This document shows, piece by piece, positions 38,711-40,533 of a stretch of DNA of 64,000 bases. The DNA is taken from the NCBI RefSeq assembly GCF_001677475.2, contig NZ_CP015229.1; one strand, written 5' to 3'. Below the pieces are notes generated by a model. That model searched no databases. It saw only the letters and a program-made list of their open reading frames with translations, and was not told the DNA's origin. Made by a program: the position numbers and the translations under genes. How positions within the stretch are numbered: the first letter of the stretch is position 1; every line of letters starts with the position of its first letter. Source of the DNA: Escherichia coli. Lineage in GTDB: Bacteria > Pseudomonadota > Gammaproteobacteria > Enterobacterales > Enterobacteriaceae.

Positions 38711-38931
38711 TGCAGGAAAGCAGGCTGGAGTTACCCAGCCTGCAGTGAAATTAAACTGTCGTCGCTTTCACTCTTTCTTTGTAGATGATTTTTTTGATGC
38801 CATCGTTCTACGTGAGAGGTAATAAAACGTTGTTAGTTCTAACTTGTTAAGTTTATCCCAATGTTCTGGAGTGCTTTTCCCTGTTTTACCGTGTGGAGTA
38901 ATAATTTCTGCACATCTAACCATTATTAAAT

Positions 38932-39457
38932 TTAATAATAAGTATCGGGTTTGTTACGATAGAATTTTTCTATATCCTCAAGAATATGCTTTGCCTTATT
39001 GCCTGTGACTTTCTGAGATTCAATTATATCATCGTTAAATTCTAAAGTTAATGAGAACTCATTTTTTCCGCTTTGTGTAAGTTTAACATTATATTGCGTC
39101 GTAATTTTTAAATGAATATGTCCTGTAATGAGAATAATCACTTTTAGTTACCTCAGCAAAACAGCAAAGTGTGCAAATATACATACAATCTTTCTTACCC
39201 CTGATTTTGTTAACTAAATCAATAAATGCGTGAAAAAGTTTATTTGCAATAGAACTTGATGCTTCTTCTCCAGGTCTACAAAAATCTTTTGCAATTTTTA
39301 ACTGTGTTTCTATATATAAAAAGAGATCTTTGGCATAAGAGAAATCTTTATTATTTAGTGCATCTAGCTCAACAGGTAAAGATGTCGTTTTGTTGCTATT
39401 CACATATGATATATTCATATCATCATCTCCATCGGGAGTAATAAAATTAATCACCAT
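38932..39457 (-). pseudogene. AT-rich hypothetical gene apparently split by a frameshift (yjbS region)
   Basis: Two minus-strand ORFs in different frames overlap at 39089-39141: 39089-39457 (122 aa) and 38932-39141 (69 aa, MIILITGHIHLKITTQYN...). Together they look like one ancestral gene of about 190 aa. Confidence 0.45.
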
Positions 39458-39819
39458 TGTTGGGTAAGCGGCTGGTCAATCAGAAATCATCTTTATAAAC
39501 TTCGATTGTTTTTGTAATGCTGTATCATTAAGTTCATTAAATCGTACAGCAGATAAATGTTCTATCAAATTTCGCTCATTTGCAGAGGATTCATCATAAT
39601 AAACGTAAAGTTAATGTATCCTTACATCGAGTAATAAACATTTTTTATACAAAAAAAGACAGGAACGTATTTACTGGGTTAAATATAATCATCCTGCTTT
39701 TCATCACAAAAACCGCAGATAATCCTTCCTTTCCCCTGCAGCTGGCGTTATGGTCAGATGGTTTTTGCAACAAATCTCACAATAAAAAGTTTCAACATAC
39801 TGACTATTTAGGGAAAAAT

Positions 39820-40533
39820 ATGCGCAAGATCACACAGGCAATCAGTGCCGTTTGCTTATTGTTCGCTCTAAACAGTTCCGCTGTTGCCCTGGCCTCATCT
39901 CCTTCACCGCTTAACCCTGGTACTAACGTTGCCAGGCTTGCTGAACAGGCACCAATTCATTGGGTTTCGGTCGCACAAATTGAAAATAGCCTCGCAGGGC
40001 GTCCGCCAATGGCGGTGGGGTTTGATATCGATGACACGGTACTTTTTTCCAGTCCGGGCTTCTGGCGCGGCAAAAAAACCTTCTCGCCAGAAAGCGAAGA
40101 TTATCTGAAAAATCCTGTGTTCTGGGAAAAAATGAACAATGGCTGGGATGAATTCAGCATTCCAAAAGAGGTCGCTCGCCAGCTGATTGATATGCATGTA
40201 CGCCGCGGTGACGCGATCTTCTTTGTGACTGGTCGTAGCCCGACGAAAACAGAAACGGTTTCAAAAACGCTGGCGGATAATTTTCATATTCCTGCCACCA
40301 ACATGAATCCGGTGATCTTTGCGGGCGATAAACCAGGGCAAAATACAAAATCGCAATGGCTGCAGGATAAAAAAATCCGAATTTTTTATGGCGATTCCGA
40401 TAACGATATTACCGCCGCACGCGATGTCGGCGCTCGTGGTATCCGCATTCTGCGCGCCTCCAACTCTACCTACAAACCCTTGCCACAAGCGGGTGCGTTT
40501 GGTGAAGAGGTGATCGTCAATTCAGAATACTGA
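39820..40533 (+). CDS. aphA: Class B acid phosphatase AphA
   Basis: [25 protein letters not shown] signal peptide; HAD-type DDDD motifs ([13 protein letters not shown]; FYGDSDNDI). Confidence 0.93.

Follow-up and report, generated by a model that had tools for sequence, protein, structure and literature searches.

The interval between tyrB and aphA was analysed in a window of 64,000 nucleotides (nt) from Escherichia coli (contig NZ_CP015229.1 of the RefSeq assembly GCF_001677475.2), "the window" denoting this whole stretch. The interval holds an AT-rich islet, and on its minus strand lie two open reading frames (ORFs) in different frames, which are read here as the remains of one longer gene broken by a single inserted base. 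This gene, termed long YjbS, is intact in many other E. coli strains, and yjbS of the K-12 reference appears to be a fragment of it. The features concerned are the following:

38711..39712: AT-rich variable islet (1,002 nt, 31.6% GC), lying between the stop codon of tyrB and the conserved promoter region of aphA, delimited by composition and by alignment with the junction of strain A21
37475..38710, plus strand: tyrB, aromatic amino acid transaminase, the left flank (ORF list and RefSeq annotation of homologous loci)
39820..40533, plus strand: aphA, acid phosphatase, the right flank (ORF list and RefSeq annotation of homologous loci)
39089..39457, minus strand: upstream piece of the gene, 122 amino acids (aa) when read from ATG 39457, 109 aa when read from ATG 39418, the likely start
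38932..39141, minus strand: downstream piece of the gene, 69 aa from GTG 39141
39105..39109, minus strand: lesion, A5 on the coding strand (T5 on the plus strand) as compared with A4 in the closest intact allele, a +1 insertion
39427..39430, minus strand: Shine-Dalgarno motif GGAG, 8 nt 5′ of ATG 39418 (MNIS...)

A sequence-only reading of this DNA had reported two minus-strand ORFs of 122 and 69 aa that overlap at 39089-39141 in different frames, within an AT-rich islet between tyrB and aphA; both observations agree with the ORF list and with the composition given above. Relative to the upstream frame, the downstream one is shifted by +1 (39457-39141 = 316 = 3x105+1). Residues 1-117 of the intact allele in strain AF39 (locus L001; 174 aa) are colinear with the upstream piece, whose final five residues (NYDAI) are out of frame. 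The downstream piece is native only 3′ of the A-run (about 38932-39104; ITTQYNV...PDTYY), where it equals the C-terminal 57 residues of the intact protein. AF39 is the closest relative of the window and carries an intact gene, with 95.8% identity over the islet and 94.7% DNA identity over the ORF. The alignment at the lesion, TCATTTAAAAATTACGACG in the window and TCATTTAAAATTACGACA in AF39, displays a single extra A. Past this position the upstream frame reads ...YSFK-NYDAI-stop, and the native frame resumes as ITTQYNVKLTQSGK...PDTYY in the downstream ORF.

From the sequence, ATG 39418 is the probable start codon, because GGAG is located 8 nt in front of it and no Shine-Dalgarno-like motif could be read in the sequence ahead of ATG 39457. 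The RefSeq start of yjbS matches ATG 39418. To assess the contribution of chance, 2,000 first-order Markov simulations of the islet composition were run, in which the longest stop-free stretch measured 72 ± 16 codons, with a maximum of 176 codons. The stop-free stretch of 128 codons in the window, reached in 0.6% of the simulations, exceeds chance for this composition, whereas that of 71 codons, reached in 48%, does not by itself; the fused ORFs of 180-186 codons found in other strains are longer than the simulated maximum.

An uninterrupted ORF colinear with both pieces is present in nine of the 13 fetched E. coli loci (L001 AF39, L003 E62, L004 PapRG-04-4, L008, L009, L011, L012, L014 and L015) and comprises 180-186 stop-free codons. 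The protein collection contains clusters of intact proteins of 161-167 aa as well (e.g., P0001, P0002, P0005 and P0009), the largest with 2,144 member sequences. Joined together, the two window pieces give 174 aa, which align end to end with the intact alleles and are 90% identical to the 180-aa allele of E62. The gene shares its locus and strand with the intact alleles, on the minus strand between tyrB and aphA, and departs from the uninterrupted frame of the family by the +1 A at 39105-39109. On these alignments, the window copy is a pseudogene member of the long YjbS family. Genomes in which the pieces are fused, whose search had been proposed earlier, were thus found, and the claim of a single ancestral gene broken by a frameshift holds with these fused loci and protein clusters. 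The size of about 190 aa proposed for the ancestral gene has to be reduced to 174-180 aa when counted from the first ATG (MVxNF) and to 161-167 aa when counted from MNIS, the likely start.

The intact alleles resemble the window copy in being colinear with both of its pieces, and AF39 shares the KITTQYNV/NDDII allele class with the window. They differ in being uninterrupted, and many of them carry a tandem duplication of 6 aa without counterpart in the window. This is an 18-nt tandem duplication (equivalent to window 39332-39349), which adds six residues, aligned as an insert of KDISYA type, in the KD[IF]SYAKD repeat region (KDISYAKDFSYAKD as compared with KDISYAKD). Alleles of E62 type have this duplication, and the window, AF39, K-12 and O157:H7 lack it.

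Other lineages carry different lesions in the same gene. In K-12, a G is deleted (TTTTTGTAG > TTTTTTAG, at the counterpart of window 39279) and one A is lost from an A7 tract (GCGGAAAAAAAGAG). Other indels at the A7 tract were found in the loci L007 and L010, and in O157:H7 a 10-nt deletion removes the tract. In total, at least five different inactivating lesions occur across lineages (window, K-12, O157:H7 and two others). The A-tract lies at about 39061-39068 on the minus strand (GCGGAAAAAA[A/T]GAG), is A7 in E62-type alleles and represents a recurrent indel site; the window reads A6-T there with the frame kept.

The frequency of the lesions was determined by lesion-specific word searches over 5,426 complete genomes. 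The K-12-type G deletion was found in 1,518 genomes and the G-intact state at this site in 2,796, the A6 state at the tract in 1,703 and the O157-type deletion in 309. At least 2,012 of the 4,327 islet carriers (46%) are therefore broken by one of the counted lesions. Since at least 46% are broken and nine of the ten fetched loci outside the census lesion classes are intact, the gene is kept by roughly half of the islet carriers, an indirect estimate as A7 alleles are not countable by word search (presumably because of low-complexity masking).

The K-12 gene yjbS was located by homology within the upstream piece:

39214..39418, minus strand: segment homologous to K-12 yjbS (67 aa), mapped from L002 1013-1216

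This counterpart forms the N-terminal half of the upstream piece of the window, and the earlier assignment of the downstream piece to yjbS was wrong. In K-12, the native frame ends after ...KIAKDF owing to the G deletion and the last 15 residues (LDLEKKYQVLLQVKFFTHLLI) are out of frame, which leaves a product of 52 native and 15 out-of-frame residues. K-12 yjbS (WP_001321562.1) shares locus, strand and start (MNISYVNSNK...) with the window copy at 91% DNA identity over the islet and, like the window ORFs, is best read as a frameshift fragment of the same longer gene. It differs in being broken earlier and twice, whereas the window has one other lesion and keeps 104 native residues.

The annotation of the intact alleles seems to follow the K-12 fragment. 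In eight loci (L001, L003, L004, L009, L011, L012, L014 and L015; homologs of window 39214-39430) the RefSeq Prokaryotic Genome Annotation Pipeline (PGAP) tags the intact allele as a "hypothetical protein, frameshifted" pseudogene of about 205-223 nt, and for E62 and 2014C-3061 RefSeq adds a separate C-terminal protein of 83 aa (WP_000275035.1). Apparently, the truncated K-12 YjbS served as the RefSeq reference by which the intact alleles were flagged. In the literature, yjbS is listed among the genes that are essential only by TraDIS (transposon-directed sequencing of insertion sites; PMC5821084), and IS1 insertions at nt 193/204 of yjbS were described in two macrophage-evolved K-12 populations (PMC4999529). 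An IS1 copy also adjoins yjbS in a natural dog isolate, strain T28R (H13). The islet looks like a target hot spot of IS1.

For the intact protein and two small neighbouring ORFs, scans with Pfam, NCBIfam, PHROGs and PADLOC revealed no significant family. The best family hits, BamG (E 0.031) and phrog_32549 (E 0.015), are far below any cut-off and were dismissed. Rfam gave no match at E <= 1 over 38400-40100. Homologs were sought among 5.8 billion proteins by word index and among 1.84 billion representatives by an exhaustive profile search, and no homolog outside E. coli was found, the matches being E. coli variants and fragments only; a tblastn search against phages gave no match. Eight matches were obtained in the plasmid collection, of which six are records of 0.66-4.9 Mb that resemble chromosomal DNA and the others measure 373 kb and 17 kb. 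The PLSDB records NZ_OL790696.1, NZ_CP134663.1, NZ_CP141089.1 and others appear to be whole or partial chromosomes that were wrongly filed as plasmids.

A scan of one genome per species with two peptide patterns, which is of limited sensitivity, detected no relative besides one contaminant contig. This contig, NZ_JAUFQN010000013.1 of Flavobacterium paronense CECT 8460 (L016), was considered as a homolog outside E. coli and is read as contamination with E. coli K-12. It is 9.5 kb long, comes from a long-read assembly, carries uvrA-yjbR-yjbQ-aphA-yjbS-tyrB with many frameshifts and contains the K-12-type yjbS lesion. According to these searches, long YjbS is a taxonomically restricted orphan of E. 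coli.

Structure prediction with AlphaFold2 on a shallow alignment resulted in a low-confidence model, with a predicted local distance difference test score (pLDDT) of 58.5 and a predicted template modelling score (pTM) of 0.50; the C-terminal part reaches a pLDDT of 70-79. The predicted layout consists of a disordered region (residues 1-39), three helices (41-64, 74-92 and 96-109), strands forming a four-stranded sheet (118-157) and a final helix (159-173).

Selection was estimated from five distinct intact alleles as the ratio of nonsynonymous to synonymous substitution rates (dN/dS), which is 0.40 in the true frame vs. 0.6-1.37 in the other five frames. The variable sites in the intact alleles are distributed over the three codon positions as 12/19/27. 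In the flanking tyrB and aphA segments, dN/dS is 0.03-0.05 with a dS of 0.03-0.07, and dS of the ORF is about 0.10. These values suggest that the gene is probably functional where it is intact, under a weak constraint far below that of core genes, and a weak constraint fits the repeated loss.

Several features of the islet point to a foreign origin: its composition (31.6% GC vs. about 50-57% in the flanks), its patchy distribution (4,327 of 5,426 E. coli genomes) and its absence from related species in the searches made. No signature of a donor or of mobility was found, as there is no phage match, no integrase, no tRNA and only repeats of 10-11 nt at chance level. The tyrB/yjbS region of K-12 (318 bp) is one of the 78 "promoter islands" listed by Panyukov and Ozoline (2013; PMC3661553), where it is marked as bound by H-NS, as part of a GIST genomic island and as foreign according to Price et al., and is associated with predicted foreign genes. 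The window region shares the AT-rich composition of these promoter islands and differs in that a simple sigma-70 scan gives five promoter-like sites vs. 5.3 in shuffled sequences. By analogy with the H-NS data, which are from K-12, the islet may be regarded as foreign and H-NS-silenced. The earlier suggestion of a decaying, horizontally acquired gene is therefore retained as to the decay, given the lesions described above, and is compatible with the low GC content and the missing homologs; the transfer itself we infer from these features, with no donor found.

Ordinary gene decay, by which the window gene would be a simple frameshift pseudogene of an orphan confined to E. coli, is considered very probable. 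The A4 run (39105-39109) has gained one A where the predicted sheet domain begins, so that translation from ATG 39418 would end after 104 native and five foreign residues and the C-terminal 57 codons would be left as an orphaned frame. Lying in foreign, H-NS-silenced DNA, the gene would be little expressed and dispensable, and hence decay repeatedly. The sequence-only reading had also offered a programmed frameshift. In such a case the two pieces would be joined into the full-length protein in a regulated manner at UUU AAA AAU, either by a +1 shift of the ribosome or by slippage during transcription. The site is formally slippery, since a tRNA-Lys paired with AAA can find another AAA when it slips by +1 at A AAA A. 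As in the +1 frameshift of prfB, a +1 change is needed and the P-site codon can re-pair, whereas the in-frame stop or hungry codon, the upstream Shine-Dalgarno stimulator and the conservation are lacking and the intact state is common. In UUU AAA AAU UAC, the A-site codon AAU is a common Asn codon, neither stop nor rare, the nearest Shine-Dalgarno-like AGGA lies 10 nt 5′ of UUU and not at the 3-nt spacing of prfB, and the RNA around the site (91 nt) is no better folded than shuffled sequences (-4.8 kcal/mol, z = +0.69). Efficient transcriptional slippage needs runs of about 8-9 A/T, for which the A-run of 5 nt is too short, and inspection of the overlap returned the A5 only and no slippery or stall motif. 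Furthermore, the extra A is missing from all 13 other alleles examined, among them the closest one (AF39, A4, intact), and other lineages are broken elsewhere in the gene. With a lineage-specific insertion, no stimulators and a shift position that is not conserved, a programmed frameshift is hardly credible.

A homopolymer error in sequencing or assembly, with a gene that is really intact in the strain, would fit the difference of exactly one A in a run, and long-read assemblies often contain homopolymer errors of one base. For a systematic error, though, an A4/A5 run is short, and the flanking genes of the window are clean. The exact broken products occur on other public contigs (NCBI, Logan and ENA) as well, the 109-aa form on 17 and the 69-aa form on 30, the longest being 405 kb and 5.5 Mb, and a private sequencing error is for this reason very unlikely. 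In complete RefSeq genomes, the A5 allele of the window was not found, and a 101-nt probe across the site matches only AF39, at 95%, so that one complete genome belongs to the allele class, with its frame unbroken. A functional split into two working polypeptides, the helical part of 109 aa and a C-terminal sheet and helix part starting from GTG 39141, is likewise improbable, if slightly less so. In its favour, the predicted helical part ends just before the break, which coincides with the beginning of the first strand in the predicted sheet domain, and several NCBI genomes list the 69-aa ORF as a hypothetical protein. Against this, the structure model is of low confidence, the other broken alleles are cut elsewhere into pieces of differing size, which resembles random decay, and the 71-codon stop-free stretch is at chance level for this composition.

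Four points weigh against plain decay of a dispensable foreign gene. A Shine-Dalgarno-like GAGG is located 9 nt 5′ of GTG 39141, by which the C-terminal piece would be separately translatable in principle; the same GAGG...GTG is found in intact alleles and is thus not an adaptation to the split. The intact alleles are not neutral (dN/dS 0.40), so the loss in the window need not be cost-free. The N-terminal product of 109 aa still contains the three predicted helices and could be partly active. Finally, the islet has no donor among the sequences searched.

The islet is set off from its surroundings in composition and in variability. The GC content is 28-33% across about 38800-39800 vs. 47-60% in the tyrB and aphA flanks, and the nucleotide diversity is 5.5% vs. 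1.0-1.5% in the flanks. In comparison with other E. coli alleles, tyrB of the window is 96-99.4% identical and aphA 98.6-100%; tyrB as listed opens at an upstream TTG, and its true start is located further in. The 1,131-nt interval was matched in 5,422 of the 5,426 complete E. coli genomes, and the whole islet is present at 90-96% identity in 4,327 of them. Two further elements were recorded in the islet:

38720..38743, plus strand: GC-rich hairpin with a 9-bp stem GCAGGCTGG/CCAGCCTGC, 10 nt past the tyrB stop, within the variable islet
39476..39610, minus strand: conserved segment 5′ of the ORF, nucleotide diversity (pi) 0.002-0.017 vs. 0.04-0.06 in the ORF

The hairpin is probably the terminator of tyrB, as far as its sequence and position indicate. 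The conserved segment contains a promoter-like site (39568->39541) and, in the gene's own frame, 44 stop-free codons that are cut off by one TGA in 14 of 14 alleles. A rare public variant, P0059, has TGG in place of this TGA and extends the ORF upstream, which does not demonstrate that the 44 codons were once coding. The segment could be a promoter, a 5′ untranslated region (5′UTR) or the relic of a longer ancestral gene. Downstream of the gene, an ORF of 51 aa (38768-38923, minus strand) is called a hypothetical protein in some genomes (221 contigs). The islet varies most where this ORF lies (pi 0.12 at 38831-38890), the frame is lost in K-12, and the ORF is probably not a gene. Near the islet boundaries, a 10-nt direct repeat GGGTTAAATA (38654-38663 and 39676-39685) and an 11-nt imperfect inverted repeat (38717-38727 and 39690-39700) were found, both of a length expected by chance.

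About 1,050 of the 5,426 genomes (about 20%) match only the aphA-proximal 150 nt of the interval. In one such arrangement, that of strain A21, 13.9 kb are found between tyrB and aphA in place of the islet (L006 11746-25490), which encode the E1, E2 and E3 components of 2-oxoglutarate dehydrogenase, sucCD, a DASS transporter, an Ldh-family oxidoreductase and a sigma-54 two-component system. This is the KguS/KguR alpha-ketoglutarate utilisation island of uropathogenic E. coli, c5032-c5041 in CFT073 (Cai et al., 2013; PMC3694859), which about 20% of E. coli have at this position in place of the islet. In the alignment of the A21 and window junctions, homology is lost at the tyrB stop codon and found again from about 39712, about 108 nt 5′ of the aphA start. 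The kgu island and the islet occupy the same chromosomal slot with sharp shared boundaries, and differ in that the island consists of 13.9 kb of metabolic and regulatory genes without similarity to the 1.0-kb islet. Judged by this junction, the two are alternative states, the island replacing the islet and not being inserted beside it. Each state has its own hairpin just past tyrB, that of kgu-island strains differing from that of the window.

Homologous recombination within the flanking tyrB and aphA is the likely route by which the two states are exchanged, since the locus contains neither mobility genes nor a tRNA nor any convincing repeats at its edges. A protein in which KguR appears fused to YjbS (P0050) was considered as evidence that both islands coexist and was rejected as a chimeric metagenome assembly; on its contig (L017 4330-5290; ENA ERZ27273331 contig_1024), the kguR part is joined to the yjbS part by hundreds of bases of poly-A/poly-G. 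The tyrB-aphA junction is a two-state locus, a cleaner description than that of an island inserted between tyrB and aphA.

The window allele itself is of little import and adds a further frameshift pseudogene to AT-rich accessory DNA. The K-12 reference yjbS, on the other hand, appears to be what is left, truncated and out of frame, of a gene of about 165 aa which a large proportion of E. coli retain intact, and pan-genome or essentiality analyses built on yjbS thus work with a fragment. It is a tentative view, held with less than even confidence, that long YjbS is a functional protein specific to E. coli, with a fold absent from known structures, which is held by weak purifying selection in roughly half of the strains with the islet and was lost independently at least five times. 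If this were true, condition-dependent or antagonistic fitness effects would be favoured over plain neutral decay, and the reference annotation would be inverted, in that the K-12 fragment is called a gene and the intact gene is called a pseudogene.

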